A stretch of DNA of 64,000 nucleotides from an uncultured Alphaproteobacteria bacterium (GTDB lineage: Bacteria > Pseudomonadota > Alphaproteobacteria > HIMB59 > GCA-002718135). The position numbers and the translations under genes are program-made. This document shows, one piece after another, positions 50,488 through 64,000 of this stretch. How positions within the stretch are numbered: the first letter of the stretch is position 1; each line of letters begins with the position of its first letter. The notes below the pieces were generated by a model. That model was not told where the DNA came from. It searched no databases and was given only the letters and a program-made list of their open reading frames with translations. Location: assembly GCA_902610845.1 (NCBI GenBank), contig CACLXJ010000001.1, forward strand, positions 35,721-99,720, given 5' to 3'.

Positions 50488-51459
50488 CAGCTATTTATCA
50501 AAGATATAAATGTACATATAGATCCAATATTGCCGAAAAAAACAGCAATTATTACACATGGTCACGCAGATCACGCCCGATTTGGACATGATCATGTTAT
50601 TGCTACTAGGCAGACAATAGACATAATGAAAATTCGCTACGGAGATAAATGTGCGAAGAAATTTACTCCTCTTAGATACGGGCAAAAATACTCGATTAAA
50701 AACTATGATTTTACTCTTTACCCTGCGGGACATATTTTAGGAAGTGCTCAAGTTTTAATTGAAAAAAATAATCACCGTTTGGTCATCACAGGTGATTATA
50801 AAGTAGGAAAAGATGAAACATGTAAAAATTTCAAACTGGTTAAATGTGATACTTTAATTACTGAAGCAACATTTGGATTACCCATATTTCAACATCCAGA
50901 TCCCAAAGATGAAATTCAAAAACTCATACGATCTGTAAAGATAAATAACAATAATTGTCATATTGTTGGTGCGTATGCACTGGGTAAAGCACAAAGAGTA
51001 ATGAACCTTTTACGCCAGCAGAAATATAATGAGACAATTTATATTCATGGCTCTCTAGAAAAGTTATGCCAATATTATTCAAAAGAAAAAATTAATATTG
51101 GAAAGTTTGAAAAAGTTTCTTCAAAGGATAAAAGTTTTTATGAGGGTAAAATAATTATTGCACCGCCTTCAGCATTAAAGGATCGTTGGTCAAGACGATT
51201 TCCTAATCCTATTATTTGCATGGCAAGTGGATGGATGACCGTTAAGCAAAGAGCAAAACAACAAGGTATTGAATTGCCATTAGTTATTAGTGATCATAGC
51301 GATTGGAATGAATTACTAGATACAATTAAAAAATCAAAGGCGAAAAATATTCTTATTACTCATGGTCAGGAAGATGCATTGGTTTATTTTTGTAAGAAAC
51401 AAAATCTTGTTTCAAAGCCCCTTTCCATCCAAGGAAGAAGTGATGAGGAAATAGAATGA
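50470..51459 (+). CDS. Ligase-associated DNA damage response exonuclease (metallo-beta-lactamase/beta-CASP fold)
   Basis: 329 aa. 'AIITHGHADHARFGH' is the MBL HxHxDH motif. It is divergent from the helicase and coupled to the ligase gene. Confidence 0.8.
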   Translation: MDFINHQLFIKDINVHIDPILPKKTAIITHGHADHARFGHDHVIATRQTIDIMKIRYGDKCAKKFTPLRYGQKYSIKNYDFTLYPAGHILGSAQVLIEKNNHRLVITGDYKVGKDETCKNFKLVKCDTLITEATFGLPIFQHPDPKDEIQKLIRSVKINNNNCHIVGAYALGKAQRVMNLLRQQKYNETIYIHGSLEKLCQYYSKEKINIGKFEKVSSKDKSFYEGKIIIAPPSALKDRWSRRFPNPIICMASGWMTVKQRAKQQGIELPLVISDHSDWNELLDTIKKSKAKNILITHGQEDALVYFCKKQNLVSKPLSIQGRSDEEIE

Positions 51460-53024
51460 AAAAATTTTCTTCCTTACTTCACAATTTGATTTTAACACCA
51501 AGTCGAAATACCAAAATTAAATTACTTCAAGATTATTTTAAAATACTTGATATCAACCGCTCATATGCGCTTGCAATTTTATCTGACCAACTTTCATTTC
51601 AATTTATTAAAGCATCTAAACTCAGAGAGCTTGTCTATAAACAAGTAGATCAACATTTATTTGATTACTCATATGATTATGTTGGGGATTTAGCAGAAAC
51701 AATATCATTAATTTGGCCAACAAAAAAAGAGGGTAAATCTCAAAATTTATATACCTTAATAGAAAATATAAAAAAAATTAAAAAGTCTGAAATTAATACA
51801 GAGTTTAGTAAAATTTTGAGCGAAATATCTAATAACGAAAGGTGGACTTTAATTAAAATTTGCACGGGTGGATTGCGAATTGGAGTCTCGGAAAGATTAG
51901 TAAAAACGGCCTTAGCTGATCAGTATAACAAATCTGTGAATGAGATTGAAGAAATTTGGCATGGTTTAGAATTTCCATATGAAAATTTATTTAAATGGTT
52001 AAAAAATGAAACATCAAAACCAAAAATAGATTTTAAAAAATTATTTCATCCTATGATGCTAGCTAACCCTATTGATGAGGAAAAAGATTTTAAAAGATTG
52101 AACGCTAATGAATTTCAAGCAGAATATAAATGGGATGGAATTAGGGTTCAGCTTATGGTTTCATCAAAAAGTGTTTCACTGTACTCAAGAACAGGTGATA
52201 ATATATCATCTGCATTCCCAGAAATAATTGAAAATACTAAAGGTGATGCGGTTATTGACGGAGAATTACTTGTAGGAGAAAATTTTAAACCCTTTGGTTT
52301 TAATGATCTGCAGCAAAGGTTAAATAGAAAAAAAACTTCAAAAGATCTACAAAAAAAATATCCTGTTTTCATACGTGCCTATGATATTCTTTTTTACAAA
52401 GGGAAAGATCTTCGAAAATTATATCTTTTTGAGAGAAGAAAATATTTAGAAAAATTTCAAAAAGAAAATAAAACTAATCAAATTGATTTATCTTCAATCA
52501 TTAATTTTTCAACTTGGAAAGAATTAACTAAATATAAAAATAATTTAAATGACGATTTAAATGAAGGTGTAATGATTAAACTTAAAAAAAGTGAATATTT
52601 ACCAGGAAGAAAAAGGGGGAATTGGTACAAATGGAAAAAAAATCCAAAGCTAGTTGATGCTATTTTAATGTATGCTCAACGAGGACACGGAAAAAGATCA
52701 TCTTACTATTCTGATTTTACTTTTGGTGTATGGAAAGAAAATGAATTAGTGCCAATAGGAAAGGCTTATTCGGGTTATACTGACAAAGAGCTTTTAGTAT
52801 TAGATAAATTTATAAGAAATAATACTATCAATAAATTTGGTCCCGTAAGAGAGGTAAAAAAGGAAATTATATTAGAAGTGGCCTTCGATGATGTATTTCC
52901 AAGCACTAGACATAAATCAGGTGTCGCTATGCGTTTTCCTCGAATTTATAGAATTAGGTGGGACAAGCCAACAAATGAAGTGCTTTCAATTGAAGAATTT
53001 AAGAAAGAATTTAAAATAGGTTAA
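51456..53024 (+). CDS. ATP-dependent DNA ligase
   Basis: 522 aa. Adenylation motif I 'EYKWDGIRVQ' (KxDG), 'DGELLV' (motif III), 'EGVMIK' (motif IV) and 'WYKWKK' (motif V). Its start overlaps the exonuclease stop (ATGA). Confidence 0.88.
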   Translation: MKKFSSLLHNLILTPSRNTKIKLLQDYFKILDINRSYALAILSDQLSFQFIKASKLRELVYKQVDQHLFDYSYDYVGDLAETISLIWPTKKEGKSQNLYTLIENIKKIKKSEINTEFSKILSEISNNERWTLIKICTGGLRIGVSERLVKTALADQYNKSVNEIEEIWHGLEFPYENLFKWLKNETSKPKIDFKKLFHPMMLANPIDEEKDFKRLNANEFQAEYKWDGIRVQLMVSSKSVSLYSRTGDNISSAFPEIIENTKGDAVIDGELLVGENFKPFGFNDLQQRLNRKKTSKDLQKKYPVFIRAYDILFYKGKDLRKLYLFERRKYLEKFQKENKTNQIDLSSIINFSTWKELTKYKNNLNDDLNEGVMIKLKKSEYLPGRKRGNWYKWKKNPKLVDAILMYAQRGHGKRSSYYSDFTFGVWKENELVPIGKAYSGYTDKELLVLDKFIRNNTINKFGPVREVKKEIILEVAFDDVFPSTRHKSGVAMRFPRIYRIRWDKPTNEVLSIEEFKKEFKIG

Positions 53025-55194: not shown

Positions 55195-55905
55195 ATGAAT
55201 CAATCAAATAAGAAAAATTTAGAATTCATAGTTAATTCTGGAGTAAACTATTTTCTTCAGGATTCTCCAAGAAACTGGTTTGAAAGTGAGAAAAAAGCGG
55301 AATTGCCTCATTCAAATATCGAAACTGATGATAAAAAATCACAAATCGAACTTATTATTAAAGACCTTAAAGTTCATCAATCATCTCTTCAGAAAACTGC
55401 AAAAAATTTAGTTGTTTATGATGGAAACTTAAATTCAAAAGTGATGTTAATTGGTGAAGCGCCAGGAAGAGATGAGGATGAACAAGGAATACCATTTGTT
55501 GGAAGAGCTGGACAACTTTTAAATAAGATGCTTTTAGCCATTAAACTCCAAAGAGGAGATGTCTACATTACCAATGTTGTAAATTGGCGACCTCCAGATA
55601 ATAGAACGCCTACTGATGATGAAATATTAGAATATTTACCTTTTTTACAAAGACAAATTGATATTGTTAAGCCTAAATTTATTTTTCTTCTAGGAGGTGT
55701 TGCGGCAAAAGCTATTTTATCAACTCCTCTAGCGCTTGGAAAACTTAGAGGTAGATGGCATGAATACAAATCACTTAACTTGGAAGAATCTATTCTTACA
55801 ATTGCATCTTATCATCCTGCGTTTTTACTTCGTTCTCCCCAATATAAAAAACAATCATGGGAAGATTTACAAATGTTACAAGAAAAATTAAAAAATGAAT
55901 CTTAA
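55195..55905 (+). CDS. Uracil-DNA glycosylase, family 4
   Basis: 236 aa. 'VMLIGEAPGRDEDEQGIPFVGRAGQLL' and 'HPAFLLR' are family-4 UDG motifs. Confidence 0.85.
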   Translation: MNQSNKKNLEFIVNSGVNYFLQDSPRNWFESEKKAELPHSNIETDDKKSQIELIIKDLKVHQSSLQKTAKNLVVYDGNLNSKVMLIGEAPGRDEDEQGIPFVGRAGQLLNKMLLAIKLQRGDVYITNVVNWRPPDNRTPTDDEILEYLPFLQRQIDIVKPKFIFLLGGVAAKAILSTPLALGKLRGRWHEYKSLNLEESILTIASYHPAFLLRSPQYKKQSWEDLQMLQEKLKNES

Positions 55906-57646: not shown

Positions 57647-58174
57647 ATGCCTATTGATACTTCTCTAGAATTTGTTCCAATTAATATTGCTGTTATTACA
57701 ATCTCGGATTCGAGAACAAAAGAAAATGATACATCTGGAGACACTTTAGAAAAACGTATCATAGATGCAGGTCATCAAATGATTAAACGAACAATCATTC
57801 CTGATGATGTATCGAAAATAAAAGATACTTTAAATGCAATGTCGAGGGAAAAAGATATAGATTGTATCATAACAACTGGTGGTACAGGCTTAACAGGAAG
57901 AGATACCACCCCAGAAGCTGTGAAAGAAATTGCGAATAAACATATTGATGGATTTGGCGAGTTATTCAGACAAGTAAGTTTTGAAAAAATTGGTACATCA
58001 GCAATTCAATCACGAGCTGTTGCCGCATTAATAAATAGTACGTATGTTTTTTGCTTACCTGGGTCCACAGGGGCATGTAAAGATGGATGGGATGAAATAT
58101 TGCAATATCAATTAGATATTAGACATAAGCCCTGCAATTTTGTTGAAATCATGCCAAGACTAATTGAAAAATAG
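57647..58174 (+). CDS. moaB: Molybdenum cofactor biosynthesis protein B (MoaB/MogA family)
   Basis: 175 aa. 'IITTGGTGLTGRDTTPEA' is the MoCF_biosynth motif. Confidence 0.8.
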   Translation: MPIDTSLEFVPINIAVITISDSRTKENDTSGDTLEKRIIDAGHQMIKRTIIPDDVSKIKDTLNAMSREKDIDCIITTGGTGLTGRDTTPEAVKEIANKHIDGFGELFRQVSFEKIGTSAIQSRAVAALINSTYVFCLPGSTGACKDGWDEILQYQLDIRHKPCNFVEIMPRLIEK

Positions 58175-58788
58175 TGGCTGACTTTTCAATTGAAAAATCA
58201 ATTGATGGACCAGTTATTGGTTTAGACGAAGTAGGACGTGGACCATTAGCAGGACCAGTTGTTAGTTGTGGTTGTCATTATCTACATTATGATGATTTAG
58301 AATCAGAAATTCCCATAACTGATTCAAAAAAACATACACCAAAACAAAGAGAGAAATTATTTTTATTTTTTAAAAGATTACAAAAAGAGAATAAGCTTCA
58401 ATATAATTTGGGTTACGCAAGTGTAGAAGAAATAGATAAAATTAATATTTTGGAAGCAACAAAATTATCAATGAAAAGAGTGATAAATAAATTTAGTATT
58501 GATAATCCTAATCTTATTATTGATGGAAATTTTTCATTAAATTATAAAAATGAAAAATCAGTCATTGGAGGAGATAAAAAATCATTATCAATCGCAACTG
58601 CTTCTATTATAGCAAAAGTTCACCGCGATAGACTAATGAATATTCTTGATAATAAGTTTAATTATTATCATTGGAAAAGTAATGCTGGTTATGGAACAAA
58701 AAAACACATTGAAGCAATTCATAAACATGGAATAACTATCTTCCATCGTAAATCTTTTGAGCCTATTAAATCGTTATTAAATAAATAA
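58174..58788 (+). CDS. rnhB: Ribonuclease HII
   Basis: 204 aa. 'IGLDEVGRGPLAGPVV' is the catalytic DE motif, and 'DSKK' is also present. Its GTG start overlaps the moaB stop. Confidence 0.9.
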   Translation: MADFSIEKSIDGPVIGLDEVGRGPLAGPVVSCGCHYLHYDDLESEIPITDSKKHTPKQREKLFLFFKRLQKENKLQYNLGYASVEEIDKINILEATKLSMKRVINKFSIDNPNLIIDGNFSLNYKNEKSVIGGDKKSLSIATASIIAKVHRDRLMNILDNKFNYYHWKSNAGYGTKKHIEAIHKHGITIFHRKSFEPIKSLLNK

Positions 58789-58879
58789 TTTATTATTCTA
58801 GCCATGCAAGTAATGCATAACAATTATTATTTTATTATGCTTCAAAAAGATGCGACAAATATTATATGTTTATTATGTT

Positions 58880-58933
58880 TCATCATTCCTCCCATTTGAT
58901 GAGCTATTTTAGGGGTCTTCGGACCCCTTTTTT
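58880..58933 (+). ncRNA. Candidate small RNA 3' module: C-rich-loop hairpin plus intrinsic terminator
   Basis: Hairpin TCATCA-[TTCCTCCCATT]-TGATGA spans 58880-58902. It is followed by GGGGTC-TTCG-GACCCC plus T6 at 58912-58933. The module lies in a 249-nt spacer, the longest in the window. No transcript evidence is available. Confidence 0.3.
58912..58933 (+). terminator. Rho-independent terminator (UUCG tetraloop hairpin plus T6)
   Basis: 'GGGGTCTTCGGACCCC' is followed immediately by TTTTTT. Confidence 0.75.
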
Positions 58934-59037
58934 ATGTTTTAAGCCAATTCTTAAGGTTATCCCTACCTAAAGATTCTCTCTGTTGATAACTCAATTGACC
59001 TGATTATATATCTGCTTAAAGATTCCTTTTATCAATT

Positions 59038-60108
59038 ATGAAGAAAAATCAGATCATTTTAGGTGACTCGATCAAGGAAATGAAAAAAATAAAGGATCAT
59101 TCTGTTGATCTTATTTTTGCTGACCCACCCTACAACCTCCAATTAAAAGATACGCTATACAGGCCAGATCAAACAACAGTAGAAGCTGTTACACAGGATT
59201 GGGACAAGTTTAATACGTATAAAGAATATGATCAATTTACTAATGCTTGGCTTAGTGAATGTAAAAGAATATTAAAAAAAGGTGGCGCTCTTTGGGTCAT
59301 AGGAAGTTATCATAATATTTTACGTGTAGGTTCTACGATACAAGATGAAGGTCTGTGGATTTTAAATGATATTATATGGCATAAAACAAATCCTATGCCA
59401 AATTTTCGAGGGACGCGTTTTACAAATGCCCATGAAACTTTACTTTGGTGTACAACGTCACGTGATGCAAAATATACTTTTAATTATCAAAACTTAAAAG
59501 AGCTTAATGAAGGCAAACAAATGCGAAGTGATTGGTATATTCCTATTTGTTCTGGAAAAGAACGATTACGAGAAGACAATAATCAACGATCACATCCCAC
59601 ACAAAAACCGGAAGCATTACTGTATAGAATTCTTTTAGCATCAACTAATAAAGGTGATGTCGTTCTTGATCCATTTTCAGGAAGTGGAACAACAGCCGTT
59701 GTTGCTAAAAAATTACAACGAAATTTTATTAGTATTGAGAAAGATAAAGACTACGTAGAGCTGTCTAAAAAAAGATTAGGAGCAACAAAGGTCTTAAAAG
59801 AAGATGTAATTGAACTTACTAAAAGTAGACGTGATTTACCTAAAGTACCTTTTGGTGAATTAGTTGAACAAGGTATTATTCCACCGGGTGCTGTATTAAC
59901 AGATAAAAAAGAGCGCTTTAAAGCAACGGTCAGTATTGATGGTACATTAAAAATAAAAGATTTATCAGGCTCCATTCACCAAATGGGTGCAAAAATGCAA
60001 GGACTGCCTAGTTGTAATGGATGGGATTTTTGGCATGTAAAAGATAGATCAAAATCTATTCTTCTTGATGACATACGATCTGATTATAGAAACAAAAAAT
60101 TAAATTAA
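59038..60108 (+). CDS. ccrM: Cell-cycle-regulated N6-adenine DNA methyltransferase CcrM (GANTC-specific family)
   Basis: 356 aa. 'VDLIFADPPYNL', 'WVIGSYHNI', 'NPMPNFRGTRFTNAHETL' and 'HPTQKPEALL' are present. The CcrM-specific C-terminal domain 'LSGSIHQMGAKMQGLPSCNGWDFWH' is present too. The protein is collinear with Caulobacter CcrM as I recall it, and rnhB is adjacent. Confidence 0.88.
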   Translation: MKKNQIILGDSIKEMKKIKDHSVDLIFADPPYNLQLKDTLYRPDQTTVEAVTQDWDKFNTYKEYDQFTNAWLSECKRILKKGGALWVIGSYHNILRVGSTIQDEGLWILNDIIWHKTNPMPNFRGTRFTNAHETLLWCTTSRDAKYTFNYQNLKELNEGKQMRSDWYIPICSGKERLREDNNQRSHPTQKPEALLYRILLASTNKGDVVLDPFSGSGTTAVVAKKLQRNFISIEKDKDYVELSKKRLGATKVLKEDVIELTKSRRDLPKVPFGELVEQGIIPPGAVLTDKKERFKATVSIDGTLKIKDLSGSIHQMGAKMQGLPSCNGWDFWHVKDRSKSILLDDIRSDYRNKKLN

Positions 60109-60129
60109 TTTAGATAAACGGTAAAAAAA

Positions 60130-60148
60130 AAGGGGCTTAAAGCCCCTT
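60130..60148. terminator. Bidirectional hairpin terminator between ccrM and the exonuclease gene
   Basis: 'AAGGGGCTT-A-AAGCCCCTT' is flanked by A8 on the left. It separates convergent genes. Confidence 0.6.
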
Positions 60149-60151
60149 AAA

Positions 60152-61501
60152 TTAAATTGCTTTAAGAAATTGTTCGTACTGCGTGAGAGGGGTACTATCA
60201 ACCCCTGGATTTTTCTCTTTGAAAGTCTCAAAGTCGACAATTGCTTGATGAAGAGATCTAGGTTGATTATCATTAACGTGAAGTTTGTTATGAATATCTT
60301 TCTCTACTTGATTAATTACATTAGCACTCAACAAAGATCGATTTTCTTCAAAGATTAACCTATTTGCAAGCTCAGTAAATCGAGGATCCTCAAATTGAGA
60401 AGCTATTATAGCTCTCTCATTCCAATCAGAATTATGAAAAACTTTCATAAGATTTTGATCAAACTGTTCAGGAAAACCACCACTAAAGATCTTTTCTTCT
60501 ACTGTGGTGCCTTCAGGCCAATCTTTTTCAGTTAAATCTGCTGCTAATTGAAGAGCATCTTTAAAAGATTTGTTAGCTCTAATTTTCCTGGCTCTCTCGA
60601 ACAACACTTCTTCAGAAATATCATATTGGATAAATTTGATATAACTAAGGTCAAGTAGGATTGGCATTTTATTATTTTTGATAAAATAAAATGGCGATGA
60701 TTTTTTCCTTACAATTTTAGTTAACTCTTTCGCTGATAGATCTAAATAATCATCTGGATCAAATTTTAAGTCAAAGGTAAAATAACCAGATCCATACTTT
60801 AAACAATTTGTTAAAAGTAACTTTTGATCATAAAAAGGTGAATGACAAAAAACTAAATTTTGATTTATAAATTGTTCAATTCCTTTCTTAGATGTCATTT
60901 GCAAACAATTTTCAAAAAATTTTGGATCATTTTTTTTTATTTTATGTAATAATCCTACACATGCTAGCACATCGCTTTCTGCTTCATGAGCGTTCGTATG
61001 ATCTAATTGATTTGCTGAAGATAGACTTTCAAGTCGAAAATCAGGTTTACCTTTATCGTTCATATTAACTTTAATCGAAGTAGGACTAAATGTGTATGAA
61101 GATCGAGCTACATTAAGTGTATCAGCTTCTTGATTCCCCATGGTTTGGCAAATATAAACTGGCAACAAACATTGGTAAAATTGGCTTCTCAGAATTTCAC
61201 GATCAAATGTTAAAGAATTATGACCTACGATATAACTCGGAGTATGCTTCATTAAATAATTATGAATTTCTCTAGTCATTTCAAAATAAGACATATTAGA
61301 ATTCCTTAAATCAGTGATTTTTAGCTTGTTAGTCGCTAAAGCAAAAATGCTTGGAATCAATCCGGGTTTTAACCCGGTTTGAAGATTAATTTCGTCAATC
61401 AATGTAAAAGATTGATCATAAGTTTTAGCTGAAAATGTTAGAGCATAATCAAACCTTGTCTGCAGACCGGTTGTTTCGGTATCAAAAAAAGTAAATTTCA
61501 T
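60152..61501 (-). CDS. Exodeoxyribonuclease I (SbcB)-like DEDDh 3'-5' exonuclease
   Basis: 449 aa. 'FFDTETTGL' (Exo I motif), 'GHNSLTFD' (Exo II) and 'GKPDFRLESLSSANQLDHTNAHEAESDV' (Exo III, HxxxxD) are collinear with E. coli ExoI, as is the ExoI-like C-terminal region ('IKNNKMPILL', 'FSGGFPEQFDQ'). SD 'gaggagg' lies upstream. Confidence 0.8.
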   Translation of the reverse strand: MKFTFFDTETTGLQTRFDYALTFSAKTYDQSFTLIDEINLQTGLKPGLIPSIFALATNKLKITDLRNSNMSYFEMTREIHNYLMKHTPSYIVGHNSLTFDREILRSQFYQCLLPVYICQTMGNQEADTLNVARSSYTFSPTSIKVNMNDKGKPDFRLESLSSANQLDHTNAHEAESDVLACVGLLHKIKKNDPKFFENCLQMTSKKGIEQFINQNLVFCHSPFYDQKLLLTNCLKYGSGYFTFDLKFDPDDYLDLSAKELTKIVRKKSSPFYFIKNNKMPILLDLSYIKFIQYDISEEVLFERARKIRANKSFKDALQLAADLTEKDWPEGTTVEEKIFSGGFPEQFDQNLMKVFHNSDWNERAIIASQFEDPRFTELANRLIFEENRSLLSANVINQVEKDIHNKLHVNDNQPRSLHQAIVDFETFKEKNPGVDSTPLTQYEQFLKAI

Positions 61502-62190
61502 GCTGCCTCCTCAAACTTATTTGATCCAGAAATTAAGTTGTATCGTGGCAGAACGCCATTTTGAGATTTATATTTTTCCAGAAAATGATTTTCCCAATAT
61601 ACTCTCTTATCTTCAAAAGGTATGAAAGTATATTTTATACAATCAAATACCCAGCTCTTACGTTGGTCTTCTTTTGCACGATCATATATTGAAGCTCCTC
61701 GTCCATAGTACACAGTTTCTGAACCTTGAAGATATTGATAAATACCAGGTGCTTTAGGTAGGTCCTTAGGATCATGCTTAAAATGCTCAAACTGAGGTAC
61801 TATTGGAATTACAATCTCTTTAGTTTCTCGATTATAGCTAACTGGAATTCTTGCAAGTTCCCTTTTTCCTTCAGCTAATTTTCGTAAACAAGAAAATTGA
61901 CTTACTAATCTTTTACAAGATAGATACATAGGCCCAAAACCTTTTCGTCTACGATGATCAGATGAAAAAGCTAAATTTTCACAAGATGCTTCTTCATGAG
62001 AACCTTTTATGAAAAGTTGAGAAGACCAATTGTAATCTTGATGATCTCTTTTGCATGTTATAGTTTTAAAATTATGAAGACCGGCTAGCTGAGTAATGCT
62101 TGAATTGAAATAAATTCCATTTTTTCGTACACTAACTGAAGCAGCTTTAGGATCAAAATAAGTATCTAATCGACATATAAATTTATCCAT
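61498..62190 (-). CDS. Two-domain protein: unrecognised N-terminal domain plus C-terminal UvrC/Cho-like GIY-YIG nuclease domain
   Basis: 230 aa. 'PGIYQYLQGSETVYYGRGASIYDRAKE...YWENHFLEKYKSQNGVLPRYN' matches GIY-x9-Y(I/Y)G-x-A-x2-(L/I)-x2-R ... E-N-x-(L/F)-(I/L)-x2-Y...P-R-Y-N of the UvrC N-domain. A strong SD 'aaggaggt' lies 7 nt upstream, and the gene overlaps the exonuclease start (ATGA). Confidence 0.7.
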   Translation of the reverse strand: MDKFICRLDTYFDPKAASVSVRKNGIYFNSSITQLAGLHNFKTITCKRDHQDYNWSSQLFIKGSHEEASCENLAFSSDHRRRKGFGPMYLSCKRLVSQFSCLRKLAEGKRELARIPVSYNRETKEIVIPIVPQFEHFKHDPKDLPKAPGIYQYLQGSETVYYGRGASIYDRAKEDQRKSWVFDCIKYTFIPFEDKRVYWENHFLEKYKSQNGVLPRYNLISGSNKFEEAA

Positions 62191-62415
62191 TTAATTTACC
62201 TCCTTACTTTCATCATTTACTTTTTCAAAAAGTATAAATCTTTGATCTGGGTTATTAAAATTGAAAATAATTTCAAAATCTTCAATTGATATTGGTGAAA
62301 TATAAAAATTTTCATCTAAATTTTCTTCTATTTCTCTCACCATTTGTGTTTCGCCCATTTTATAAATTATTCTGGTTGAGCGAATTCCAGAAATTATTTT
62401 AACTTCATCAGTCAT
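62191..62415 (-). CDS. Small acidic protein (hypothetical, 74 aa), first gene of the nuclease operon
   Basis: SD 'aaggag' lies upstream. Its stop codon abuts the GIY-YIG start codon. The protein is rich in E and D, and I recognise no motif. Confidence 0.45.
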   Translation of the reverse strand: MTDEVKIISGIRSTRIIYKMGETQMVREIEENLDENFYISPISIEDFEIIFNFNNPDQRFILFEKVNDESKEVN

Positions 62416-62485
62416 TTTCTGACTCCTTTGTTAATTATTATTTTTTGTTAGACATCATTGTCATAAAAGCGTATTACCTTTAAAT

Positions 62486-62517
62486 ATGTAATGGTTAAAC
62501 ATTACATACCATTACAT
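62486..62517. promoter_or_regulatory. Operator-like inverted repeat in the divergent promoter region
   Basis: 'ATGTAATGG-N14-CCATTACAT' is a perfect 9-bp inverted repeat. A third 'CATTACAT' copy sits inside the spacer at 62500-62507. The site lies 10 nt upstream of the 485-aa ORF start. Confidence 0.4.
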
Positions 62518-62526
62518 TTTTAAACT

Positions 62527-63984
62527 ATGAGTGAGAGACTTTTTAAAACTAACTGGGTAAAATTTTCAGATTATGAGATTAGTTATGGGAGAATTAAGCC
62601 AAAAAAAGGATCAAAAATGATTCATTATGATCCAATAGCTGAAAGTGAAAAATTTAAAAAAAGCTCAAACACGGTTTATGACCAAATATATAAAATTAAA
62701 GAAAATAATCAGACAGATTTAAAAGAGTGGTTACGATTTGCAAAAAAATGGGGACTGCCTTGCACGCTTTTACACAACGTTGATGAAATAATTCTAGCTC
62801 CAAGATATCTCGCTTTTCAAAATAGCCAGATTTCTGAAACTGTCAGAGATCATTTAACAAACAAAATGGATAAGGTAAATTTTATTGTTCATAATTTTGA
62901 ATATGAAGTAACTAAATTAAATTCAAAAATTCAATGGGTAAGTGAGAAAAATAAAAAATTACTAAATAAATATAGAGTACAAAAAGTTAATTATTTTGAA
63001 TCTGATTTAAACCCTAATGATCCAACAGATTTAAACTGGCCTTATTCAAATGTAGTACATCTATGCCCACAACAACTTATATATAAGTATTTTAATGGAA
63101 AATGGGAAATTAGAACTAATTTTTTGACAGTTAAAAAACTAAATAAGAAAGCTAAACCAGGAGATATAATTGATAAAAAAAATGTAGTCGAGGGATACCT
63201 AACTCCAGGTTATTTTAAAATAACAGATTCAATAAATGAAGATAATGATGAAATTGAAACTCTAAGTGTAAGTATATCTTCGACAGGAAAAAGAAAATTT
63301 AATCCATTTTATTTAGGAAAACATTTTATCTCTAATTACAGAAATAAAAAAATTGAAACCGTCTATGATTATCCTCATGAGTTTACTAAATATTTTCCTG
63401 GTATGTTACAAGATGAGACATCAGAGGAAAAACATGCCAGAAATATTGAAGAGTTTTTTTGGCCATTTCCAGTTAGTGAAAAATTTCATAGAAATTATGC
63501 AGAAGAAGGCTACGAGCTTGGAGTGTTAGCCATAAACATTAAAATGTTTTTTATAAGACTAAAAGAAGCAAATAAACATATAAGATTGTTAAAAAATAAA
63601 AATGAAAAAAACTATCCAAATCGATATAATATAATTTATCGCGATTTGGAAAAATCGCTAATTAAATTTACATCAAGATTATTACTTACTTTTTCAAAAG
63701 ATAAAGACCGCAAATATAGTATATATTCACCTTCATTAATTGGTTATATAGGTCATATAATCCTCCAAGATATTACAAGTAAATATTCTCCAAGATTTTG
63801 TATAGAATGTGAAAGACTGATTTCTAACCCTGCAAAACCTGATAGCCCATATTGTGATGATTCAACATGTGGCAACAGACATAGAGTAAGGAGAACAAGA
63901 AAAAAAGCAAAGCTCAAAAAATTGTTAGATAAAAAAGAGATATCTAAAAAAGTTTATATTAATAAACTTAGAGAAATAGATTAA
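62527..63984 (+). CDS. Large orphan protein with C-terminal CGNR-type zinc finger and basic tail
   Basis: 485 aa. The C-terminus 'CIECERLISNPAKPDSPYCDDSTCGNRHRVRRTRKKAK' fits the C-x2-C...C-x4-CGNR-x-(R/K)-rich pattern of zf-CGNR. I recognise no family for the first ~430 aa, and no obvious SD is present. Confidence 0.55.
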   Translation: MSERLFKTNWVKFSDYEISYGRIKPKKGSKMIHYDPIAESEKFKKSSNTVYDQIYKIKENNQTDLKEWLRFAKKWGLPCTLLHNVDEIILAPRYLAFQNSQISETVRDHLTNKMDKVNFIVHNFEYEVTKLNSKIQWVSEKNKKLLNKYRVQKVNYFESDLNPNDPTDLNWPYSNVVHLCPQQLIYKYFNGKWEIRTNFLTVKKLNKKAKPGDIIDKKNVVEGYLTPGYFKITDSINEDNDEIETLSVSISSTGKRKFNPFYLGKHFISNYRNKKIETVYDYPHEFTKYFPGMLQDETSEEKHARNIEEFFWPFPVSEKFHRNYAEEGYELGVLAINIKMFFIRLKEANKHIRLLKNKNEKNYPNRYNIIYRDLEKSLIKFTSRLLLTFSKDKDRKYSIYSPSLIGYIGHIILQDITSKYSPRFCIECERLISNPAKPDSPYCDDSTCGNRHRVRRTRKKAKLKKLLDKKEISKKVYINKLREID

Positions 63985-64000
63985 ATGTAATAGATTTATT

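Follow-up and report, generated by a model that had tools for sequence, protein, structure and literature searches.

A 64,000-nucleotide stretch of contig CACLXJ010000001.1 from an uncultured alphaproteobacterium, here referred to as the window, carries the gene of a 230 amino acid (aa) protein in which a GIY-YIG nuclease domain follows a basic N-terminal domain (N-domain) of no recognised family. The gene belongs to an island of four genes that also encode an ExoI-like exonuclease, a 74-aa protein and a protein with a zinc-finger motif. Our favoured and still tentative reading is that this island represents a mobile cut-then-degrade nuclease module acting in genetic conflict, against phage or other incoming DNA. 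We prefer genetic conflict to a housekeeping function because of the mobility of the island, its sporadic distribution, the exchange of an allele, a private regulator and an exonuclease of defence type. The GIY-YIG nuclease superfamily itself is known; new here are the targeting module and the set of partners.

In the proposed order of events the basic N-domain would recognise the target, the GIY-YIG domain would nick or cut it and the ExoI-like enzyme would degrade the DNA from the new 3' ends. The 74-aa and zinc-finger proteins would restrain the nuclease or regulate expression at an operator. Because ExoI-type enzymes act on single strands, a possible variant is a target that is single-stranded or becoming so, such as the circular single-stranded DNA of phages and plasmids, transfer strands or replication intermediates. 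The identities of the domains, the conserved catalytic residues, the structure of operon and island, the signs of mobility and the operator footprint were observed directly; that the N-domain binds DNA, that the steps follow in this order and that the module serves in defence is what we infer.

SAR11 is the most abundant marine bacterium, and few defence systems are known from it. If the favoured reading is true, an endonuclease-exonuclease island that is mobile and brings along a regulator would add to the ways in which SAR11 handles phage and other foreign DNA. If the island is a repair or selfish element instead, the family still represents an uncharacterised family of nucleases.

The two-domain GIY-YIG protein

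The open reading frame (ORF) of the GIY-YIG protein starts with an ATG at position 62190 and its stop codon ends at 61498, exactly as given in an earlier note that had been made from the sequence alone. A Shine-Dalgarno (SD) sequence, AAGGAGGT, is located 7 nt upstream of the ATG. The C-terminal motifs had been read in that note as a UvrC-like GIY-YIG nuclease. All motifs quoted there are present, namely GIY (residues 149-151), YYG (161-163), IYDR (168-171), WENH (199-202) and PRYN (215-218), and they provide the catalytic set Y151, Y161, G163, R171, E200 and N218. The reading was right, and it could be shown only with profiles or with a structure. As a single query the protein had no match in Pfam, PHROGs, PADLOC or PDB (phmmer), and NCBIfam returned only a weak match to UvrC over residues 138-173 (E=0.011), with a score of 14.1 bits compared to a cut-off of 544. 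A profile of eight close homologues was aligned in register with the structures 1yd5/1ycz, which represent the N-terminal domain of UvrC (E=0.02), and a profile of 98 sequences matched UvrC (E=0.005), T4 EndoII (0.011) and the GIY-YIG domain of GrxS16 (0.018). Nine of the 98 family members matched Pfam PF01541 directly, the best of them with an E value of 1e-6.

Within the alignment of 98 relatives Y151, G163 and N218 were found in all sequences, E200 in 97, R171 in 96 and Y161 in 90. Loss of the catalytic Arg or Glu, named in the earlier note as a finding that would speak against the assignment, was not observed in the window protein. In the profile alignment Y151 is aligned with the GVY of UvrC and E200 with the conserved UvrC Glu. 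R171 we take to be the equivalent of UvrC Arg39, the placement coming from the profile alignment. The second Tyr motif, Y161-Y162-G163, is located approximately 10 residues past GIY and has the family consensus VYIG. The distal Asn stands in PRYN, compared to PKYN in UvrC, behind a spacer that is six residues longer, and the local HMMER alignment stops before this Asn. A near-invariant P132-x-F134-E135 forms a linker motif at the junction of the two domains.

An AlphaFold model calculated from the 98-sequence alignment reached a predicted local distance difference test score (pLDDT) of 93.9 and a predicted template modelling score (pTM) of 0.86. It replaced a run on eight sequences, in which the N-domain had a pLDDT of only 50-74, and was used for Foldseek. 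Against the PDB, residues ~135-225 were superposed on UvrC 1ycz with a probability of 1.00 and a root-mean-square deviation of 2.3 Å over 87 columns; the template modelling (TM) score, normalised to the target, was 0.70. Both Tyr motifs, the Arg, the Glu, the distal Asn and the alpha/beta fold, the features of the GIY-YIG superfamily, were all found. Since profiles, conserved catalytic residues and the superposition on UvrC agree, we consider the C-terminal domain to be a real and complete GIY-YIG nuclease, which judging by its sequence and model is apparently active. A second GIY string at residues 25-27 is coincidental. The Cys content of the N-domain, mentioned in the earlier note, is of no functional significance: none of the six cysteines of the protein was conserved across the family, and a metal site is therefore not present. 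Pfam DUF7508 matched 8 of the 98 full-length family members and none of 60 N-domains, and therefore probably lies within the GIY-YIG half; a literature search found no mention of this family.

In the AlphaFold model the N-domain is built from some nine strands and three helices, all of them short, with the pLDDT falling to 87-88 over residues 71-90. Searched alone with an alignment of 60 sequences, it gave nothing consistent in Pfam or PHROGs and no PDB match by profile. The N-terminal 131 aa had no match in NCBIfam or PADLOC, a word-indexed homologue search returned known family members only, and Foldseek with the full model gave PDB matches to the nuclease domain and noise, but none to the N-domain. 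In agreement with the earlier note, which had described the domain as unrecognised, no assignment to a known DNA-binding or repair family was thus obtained from structure prediction with Foldseek or from the Pfam and PDB profiles. Foldseek against BFVD returned several uncharacterised phage proteins of 117-143 aa (134-146 columns, probability ~1, TM score 0.5-0.6), the matched domain not being indicated.

Two structural analogies for the N-domain were considered and rejected. A swapped hairpin of the AbrB/MazE/MraZ type, suggested by a strand-strand-helix-strand-strand pattern, was not supported, nor was an internal two-fold repeat: hhalign gave a probability of 0.1% for one half of the domain against the other, 0.1% against MraZ and 2.2% over 22 columns against AbrB, a weak test with approximate comparator sequences. 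An analogy to KilA-N/Bro-N proteins with T5orf172 had little support, with MUG113 matching in one of the 98 members, no Pfam match to KilA-N or Bro-N among 60 N-domains and a BFVD match to 'BRO-F' at a probability of 0.51.

The N-domain of the window protein has a net charge of +9. Across the family the charge is +7.2 +/- 2.5 with a median isoelectric point of 9.6; the domain is basic in all 98 relatives and the nuclease domain is near neutral. The best conserved basic positions are 22, 34, 58, 103 and 113-114, and a stretch rich in Gly and Arg/Lys, seen by eye in the sequences, is typical of the family around residues 76-88. When domain layouts were counted with separate hidden Markov models for both domains in 264 collected family proteins, 254 had the layout N-C, two had N-N-C (P0133 with 369 aa and P0147 with 340 aa) and one had N-N-N-C (P0119, 461 aa). 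One, two or three copies can therefore precede a single nuclease domain, which identifies the N-domain as an independent, stackable module. The members with tandem N-domains are found at loci L042 and L043, without Pfam matches. In its variation the N-domain follows the nuclease domain as one unit.

GIY-YIG nucleases take their biological role from the attached domain. Judging by its sequence features, the N-domain is most likely a nucleic-acid-binding module that selects the substrate, and it is plausible that it sets the target of the GIY-YIG module, as had been proposed. This proposal is strengthened indirectly by the basic charge in all relatives, the tandem copies and the co-variation with the nuclease. 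Confidently modelled and stackable in tandem, the N-domain represents a candidate for a new DNA-recognition module and possibly for a tool.

The four-gene cassette and its distribution

The earlier note had treated the GIY-YIG gene alone. In fact, in this SAR11-type lineage it takes the middle place in a conserved operon that ends with the gene of an ExoI-like exonuclease, and its relatives make up a family of several hundred sequence clusters. The genes of the operon are tightly coupled, as seen from abutting or overlapping stop and start codons and from SD sites (for coordinates see Table 1). The stop codon of the 74-aa ORF directly adjoins the ATG of the GIY-YIG gene, and the ATG of the exonuclease gene overlaps the GIY-YIG stop codon by 4 nt (ATGA) and is preceded by GAGGAGG. 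The 74-aa protein had no match in Pfam, PHROGs, PADLOC or NCBIfam, and homologues were found in the same position at L034 (91% aa identity), L035 (47%), L036 (35%) and L007 (32%).

The exonuclease was similar to E. coli ExoI 1fxx (E=1e-20) and to phrog_19080 (2.5e-51). Its best score was obtained with a defence-associated SbcB model, PADLOC RTasSbcB, which it covered end to end (4e-66), and its NCBIfam ExoI score of 148 bits was below the cut-off of 260. By its domains and scores it belongs to the ExoI family but is probably not the housekeeping orthologue.

The gene of the 485-aa protein is divergent from the three-gene operon across a spacer of 111 bp. The Pfam match to zf-CGNR (E=4e-4) reached 20.5 bits, under the cut-off of 24, and the rest of the protein had no match in PHROGs, PADLOC or NCBIfam. 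Homologues in the same position were present at L034 (91%), L036 (49%) and L007 (30%, E=5e-23). Three copies of CCATTACAT/ATGTAATGG are found within 34 bp of the spacer, and only three further occurrences of this 8-mer exist in the 64-kb window. The motif CCATTACA is repeated in the equivalent spacers of L034 (1424-1455), L036 (859-889) and L007 (about 1165-1215), so that every cassette version examined carries two to three copies despite protein identities of 30-60%. Since the motif is kept in the spacers despite the divergence of the proteins, we regard it as the phylogenetic footprint of an operator, which probably belongs to a cassette-encoded DNA-binding protein.

The terminator-like hairpin behind the exonuclease gene is shared by the operon and a convergent ccrM-like gene and marks the right edge of the island. 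No RNA family was found by an Rfam scan of positions 58500..64000. The region has a G+C content of ~30%, and the close relatives are found on marine contigs of Pelagibacteraceae type.

Table 1. Features of the island within the window
Feature	Position	Strand	Basis
Terminator-like hairpin	60130..60148	minus	just past exonuclease stop, within the 43 bp that separate the operon from the convergent ccrM-like gene
ExoI/SbcB-like DEDDh 3'-5' exonuclease, 449 aa	60152..61501	minus	Pfam RNase_T and Exonuc_X-T_C
Two-domain GIY-YIG protein, 230 aa	61498..62190	minus	ORF, strong SD, family of 442 representatives, AlphaFold model
C-terminal GIY-YIG nuclease domain, residues 132-230	61498..61797	minus	profiles, residue conservation, Foldseek
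Basic N-terminal domain (residues 1-131), predominantly beta, three short helices	61798..62190	minus	AlphaFold model; no family match
74-aa protein, first gene of the operon	62191..62415	minus	ORF; no family match
Sigma-70-like promoter candidate for the operon	62437..62464	minus	ATGACA-16-AATAAT, 10/12 matches, consensus match only
Operator-like repeats	62485..62518	.	ATGTAATGG at 62486; CATTACAT at 62500 and 62510
485-aa protein, C-terminal CGNR-type zinc-finger motif (CxxC...CxxxCGNR)	62527..63984	plus	weak Pfam match

The order of the cassette was assessed wherever the length of a contig allowed it. Six other contigs encoded an identical or near-identical GIY-YIG protein, each with the four genes in unchanged order. 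The cassette was also present around diverged GIY-YIG proteins, at L034 (74% identity), L035 (62%), L036 (60%) and L007, L037 and L038 (39%). In every sufficiently long copy (L001-L007, L034-L038) the exonuclease gene directly followed the GIY-YIG gene. Even at L007 all four genes were homologous to those of the window, with 54% identity for the exonuclease, 30% for the large and 32% for the small protein. Furthermore, the start of a DEDD exonuclease (Pfam RNase_T, 1.7e-6) lies directly downstream of P0010 at L028, a member with 28% identity. The pairing of GIY-YIG protein and DEDD exonuclease is thus kept among copies whose GIY-YIG proteins range in identity from 99% to 28%.

Some cassettes and relatives showed additional or different genes. 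The most diverged cassette version, at L007 (3572..4142) and likewise at L037 and L038, carried two extra small genes past the exonuclease; one of them is Cys-rich (CKKC...CNKHKCNVCH), and neither had a family match. At L027 (1116..1448) the ORF downstream of P0008, a relative with 30% identity, was not ExoI-like and begins with MSELFKLSPSDFGFLYDECKRCFYL; its N-terminus may be akin to that of Cas4/RecB-type nucleases of the PD-(D/E)XK kind, but with no Pfam match it was left unassigned. Three short fragments of GIY-YIG protein or exonuclease, P0269 (76 aa), P0272 (60 aa) and P0285 (149 aa), have in common that their longest contig measures 3499 bp. It is probably one and the same contig, and if so the fragments may represent a decayed copy of the cassette.

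Evidence for the mobility of the island came from the comparison with L001 over window positions 57647..63984. Here, the cassette genes were 93-100% identical on the nucleotide level and the adjacent core genes mogA, rnhB and ccrM ~85%. As the cassette is more alike than its core flanks, the island must have moved between diverged lineages. The far flank varies between genomes, with MatE in some and an autotransporter in another. In a recent pangenome preprint, small islands of 4.4 genes on average, set into a conserved backbone and bearing defence genes among other cargo, have been described as typical of Pelagibacter (bioRxiv 10.64898/2026.04.03.716430), a pattern that matches the setting of the four-gene cassette.

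The comparison with L034 pointed to an exchange within the cassette. The 485-aa protein (91% aa identity, synonymous divergence dS 0.17), the 74-aa protein (91%, dS 0.09) and the exonuclease (96%, dS 0.17) were all closely related, whereas the GIY-YIG proteins shared only 74% with a dS of 1.23 and a ratio of nonsynonymous to synonymous divergence (dN/dS) of 0.17, both domains being equally affected. The nucleotide identity fell to 60-80% over about 62260..61500 of the window (L034 1690..2450) and was 95-100% on either side. This drop has the size of a gene, and we therefore conclude that a functional, anciently diverged GIY-YIG allele was recombined into a conserved cassette. The swap is suggestive of a specificity gene that selection might keep polymorphic.

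The wider family was collected by a profile scan of 1.8 billion cluster representatives, which brought up 442 relatives with E<=1e-3, 214 of them with E<=1e-10. Nearly all of these 442 were ~225 aa in size with the same N-C layout. The ~225-aa members are ~25% identical and stand solitary between unrelated housekeeping genes in Candidatus Planktophila (Actinobacteria), Verrucomicrobia, Bacteroidetes, Paceibacterota, other Pelagibacteraceae and other Alphaproteobacteria. The unassigned N-domain occurs in several hundred clusters from bacteria that abound in water, namely SAR11, acI Actinobacteria, Verrucomicrobia and candidate-phyla bacteria. In IMG/VR no match was found for the close set and four partial matches for the 225-aa set; phage GenBank records gave weak matches to the C-terminal domain only, and a scan of the genome collection with the close alignment found nothing. 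A literature search on GIY-YIG, SbcB/DEDDh, SAR11 and defence found no description of the N-GIY-YIG family or of the cassette.

Further observations concern single members. The locus of P0011 (L039 1..12693) is likely an integrative island: two integrase genes are accompanied there by an AAA_25 ATPase gene, an HTH_17 gene of excisionase-like type and genes for HNH and SNase nucleases. One distant member has a different set of two upstream partner genes. The source databases name the members hypothetical, except that JGI calls P0189, P0213 and P0233 'plasmid maintenance system killer protein', a name that none of our results supports. At L018 (3295..4892), from a Pelagibacteraceae genome, a solitary member is located between fabI and pnp. 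In front of it stand a small ORF in reverse orientation and a remnant copy of fabI that covers the 3' half. Over its 300 nt this remnant shares 91% identity with the intact fabI, found 812 bp upstream, and the duplicate represents a footprint of recombination or insertion beside the nuclease gene. At L019 (4107..4892), from a sister genome, the order is fabI-GIY-pnp without the duplicate, and an 'empty' fabI-pnp site was not found among the sequences examined.

Function of the cassette

A number of points weigh against a cut-then-degrade module in genetic conflict. Among the four cassette proteins PADLOC matched only the exonuclease, and the genes around distant members gave no PADLOC match. 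ExoI-type enzymes depend on 3' ends that are single-stranded, which a simple cut through both strands would not directly supply. In the wider family most genes are solitary, in ordinary chromosomal contexts and without an exonuclease, and the logic of the operon is therefore limited to the SAR11-type subfamily. The allele swap is a single case, and the argument drawn from it is weakened by the very frequent recombination of SAR11 and by smaller patches of low identity in the 485-aa gene (about 63521-63580 and 62801-62860). The bolder version, in which an undescribed N fold programs the GIY-YIG nuclease and the island with its CCATTACAT operator forms a new anti-phage or anti-plasmid system of SAR11 with a polymorphic specificity gene, we regard as doubtful.

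GIY-YIG is a classic fold of homing endonucleases, and the gene might thus be a selfish element of this kind: one or more N-domains would read a long site, the nuclease would cut it and repair would copy the gene, the operon partners being incidental or co-opted. The solitary members wedged among housekeeping genes of many phyla fit this explanation better than the SAR11-type operon does. Tandem N modules are reminiscent of the modular arrays with which homing enzymes bind DNA, and both the gene-sized replacement of the GIY-YIG gene alone at L034 and the fabI duplicate beside the member at L018, missing at L019, speak for such a gene. However, the domain order is opposite to that of the I-TevI type, no NUMOD/IENR module was found by Pfam, the family is rare in viral contigs and there is no intron or intein context. 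Within the cassette the gene keeps a constant slot while its partners co-diverge from 99% to 39% identity, which argues for joint function rather than independent mobility, and the dN/dS of 0.17 indicates sustained purifying selection. We therefore rate homing as unlikely. Similar caution applies to a nuclease of DNA repair, which would set a nick specific for a lesion or structure as UvrC or Cho do, followed by ExoI-like resection, as an alternative excision pathway of a streamlined genome. Among solved structures the nuclease domain is closest to the N-terminal domains of UvrC, and ExoI is an enzyme of repair and recombination. DnaQ-Cho fusions pair the activities of a DEDD exonuclease and a GIY-YIG endonuclease, the same two that meet in the cassette, and a weak NCBIfam match (E=0.078) was indeed obtained to PRK07883 (DEDD exonuclease domain-containing) at profile positions 219-256, which we take to be its GIY-YIG domain. 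Genes of repair are also near: by synteny with L001/L002, seen from equal ORF lengths and gene order, a 522-aa ORF (51456..53024) takes the place of a gene annotated there as ATP-dependent DNA ligase (with the N, M and C domains of DNA_ligase_A) and a 236-aa ORF (55195..55905) that of one annotated as UDG-family, and recX-recA stand beside one distant member. These ligase- and UDG-type ORFs, however, belong to the conserved backbone a few kb from the island and are core genes unlinked to the cassette in other genomes. Sporadic distribution and horizontal transfer of a cassette with its own divergent regulator and operator, as well as the observed replacement of an allele, do not suit a repair enzyme, and the 230-aa protein lacks the UvrB-interaction region, the second nuclease domain and the helix-hairpin-helix parts. 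A role in repair is thus not a likely one either.

The adjacent gene for a CcrM-like GANTC methyltransferase (59038..60108), 43 bp from the end of the operon, could make the GIY-YIG protein the restriction half of a type II pair, and with Eco29kI and Hpy188I type II restriction enzymes of GIY-YIG type and similar size exist. The genomic context largely refutes this, since the ccrM-like gene is core and does not travel with the cassette. It has the CcrM layout (N6_N4_Mtase and RAMA) and lies in the core block mogA-rnhB-ccrM, which is ~85% identical where the cassettes are 93-100%. By tblastn no methylase match was found beside L007, L036, L037 and L038, some of these contigs ending a few hundred bases past the exonuclease; solitary members have no methylase neighbour, and Foldseek against Hpy188I was insignificant (probability 0.14). 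We consider such a pair highly improbable. The link to GANTC methylation made in the earlier note, which had its sole basis in this neighbouring core gene, is not supported; no match to that gene was present in the L007 and L036 cassette sequence examined. A toxin-antitoxin-like module, in which the nuclease would be the toxin and the small protein encoded upstream, translationally coupled to it, its inhibitor, is suggested by the small ORFs that adjoin or overlap the start of the GIY-YIG gene, in the window as well as at L007, L035, L036, L027, L028 and L040, and it would agree with the name 'killer protein' of the three JGI records. This name, however, was given automatically and is unverified, homology among the small upstream ORFs is limited to SAR11-type cassettes, and most family members have no such partner. 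This explanation, quite improbable on its own, overlaps with a role in defence and does not exclude it.

Comparison with known systems

The nuclease domain shares the fold and the catalytic Tyr, Tyr, Arg, Glu and Asn with the N-terminal domain of UvrC/Cho (1ycz, 1yd6). There, however, GIY-YIG is N-terminal and in the window protein C-terminal. An identity with UvrC or Cho was rejected, as the other UvrC domains are missing, the protein ends at residue 230 and the score stays at 14.1 bits against 544. Homing enzymes of the I-TevI type share the modular design of nuclease and DNA-binding parts, the sporadic distribution and the occurrence as free-standing genes. Their catalytic domain is N-terminal, whereas the window protein is reversed and by Pfam has no NUMOD, zinc-finger or helix-turn-helix modules. 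The reversed order, the other modules, the location in a chromosomal operon and the sparseness in viral data led us to reject this identity as well. A restriction enzyme of Eco29kI/Hpy188I type was rejected since no cognate methylase travels with the GIY-YIG gene.

Closest in layout are the winged-helix (wH) GIY-YIG type IV enzymes Ahi29725I and Apa233I, in which an N-terminal reader and a C-terminal GIY-YIG domain form a single chain, usually without a methylase (PMC11037411). Compared to their winged-helix reader, the N-domain of the window protein is mostly beta and has no winged-helix Pfam match, and the subfamily of the window is coupled to an exonuclease. Readers of modified bases (wH, SRA, EVE, YTH, ASCH) were neither matched by Pfam in 60 N-domains nor seen among the Foldseek-PDB matches listed. 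The reader class thus differs from the described type IV reader-nuclease class, to which the protein was not assigned.

The 449-aa exonuclease shares the DEDDh and ExoI C-terminal domains with E. coli ExoI (SbcB) and with PADLOC RTasSbcB. No reverse transcriptase family was matched by the four cassette proteins in Pfam, PADLOC or NCBIfam. A defence-associated reverse transcriptase (DRT) system was accordingly rejected: the cassette is without a reverse transcriptase, and only the exonuclease matches a DRT-associated model. The DnaQ-Cho fusions (PRK07883) show the same combination of DEDD exonuclease and GIY-YIG endonuclease, with the difference that the cassette has two separate proteins in one operon, an exonuclease of ExoI type and the additional N-domain. 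In comparison to these systems, the module represents a candidate for a new DNA-degrading, possibly anti-virus, type rather than a known repair or restriction enzyme.

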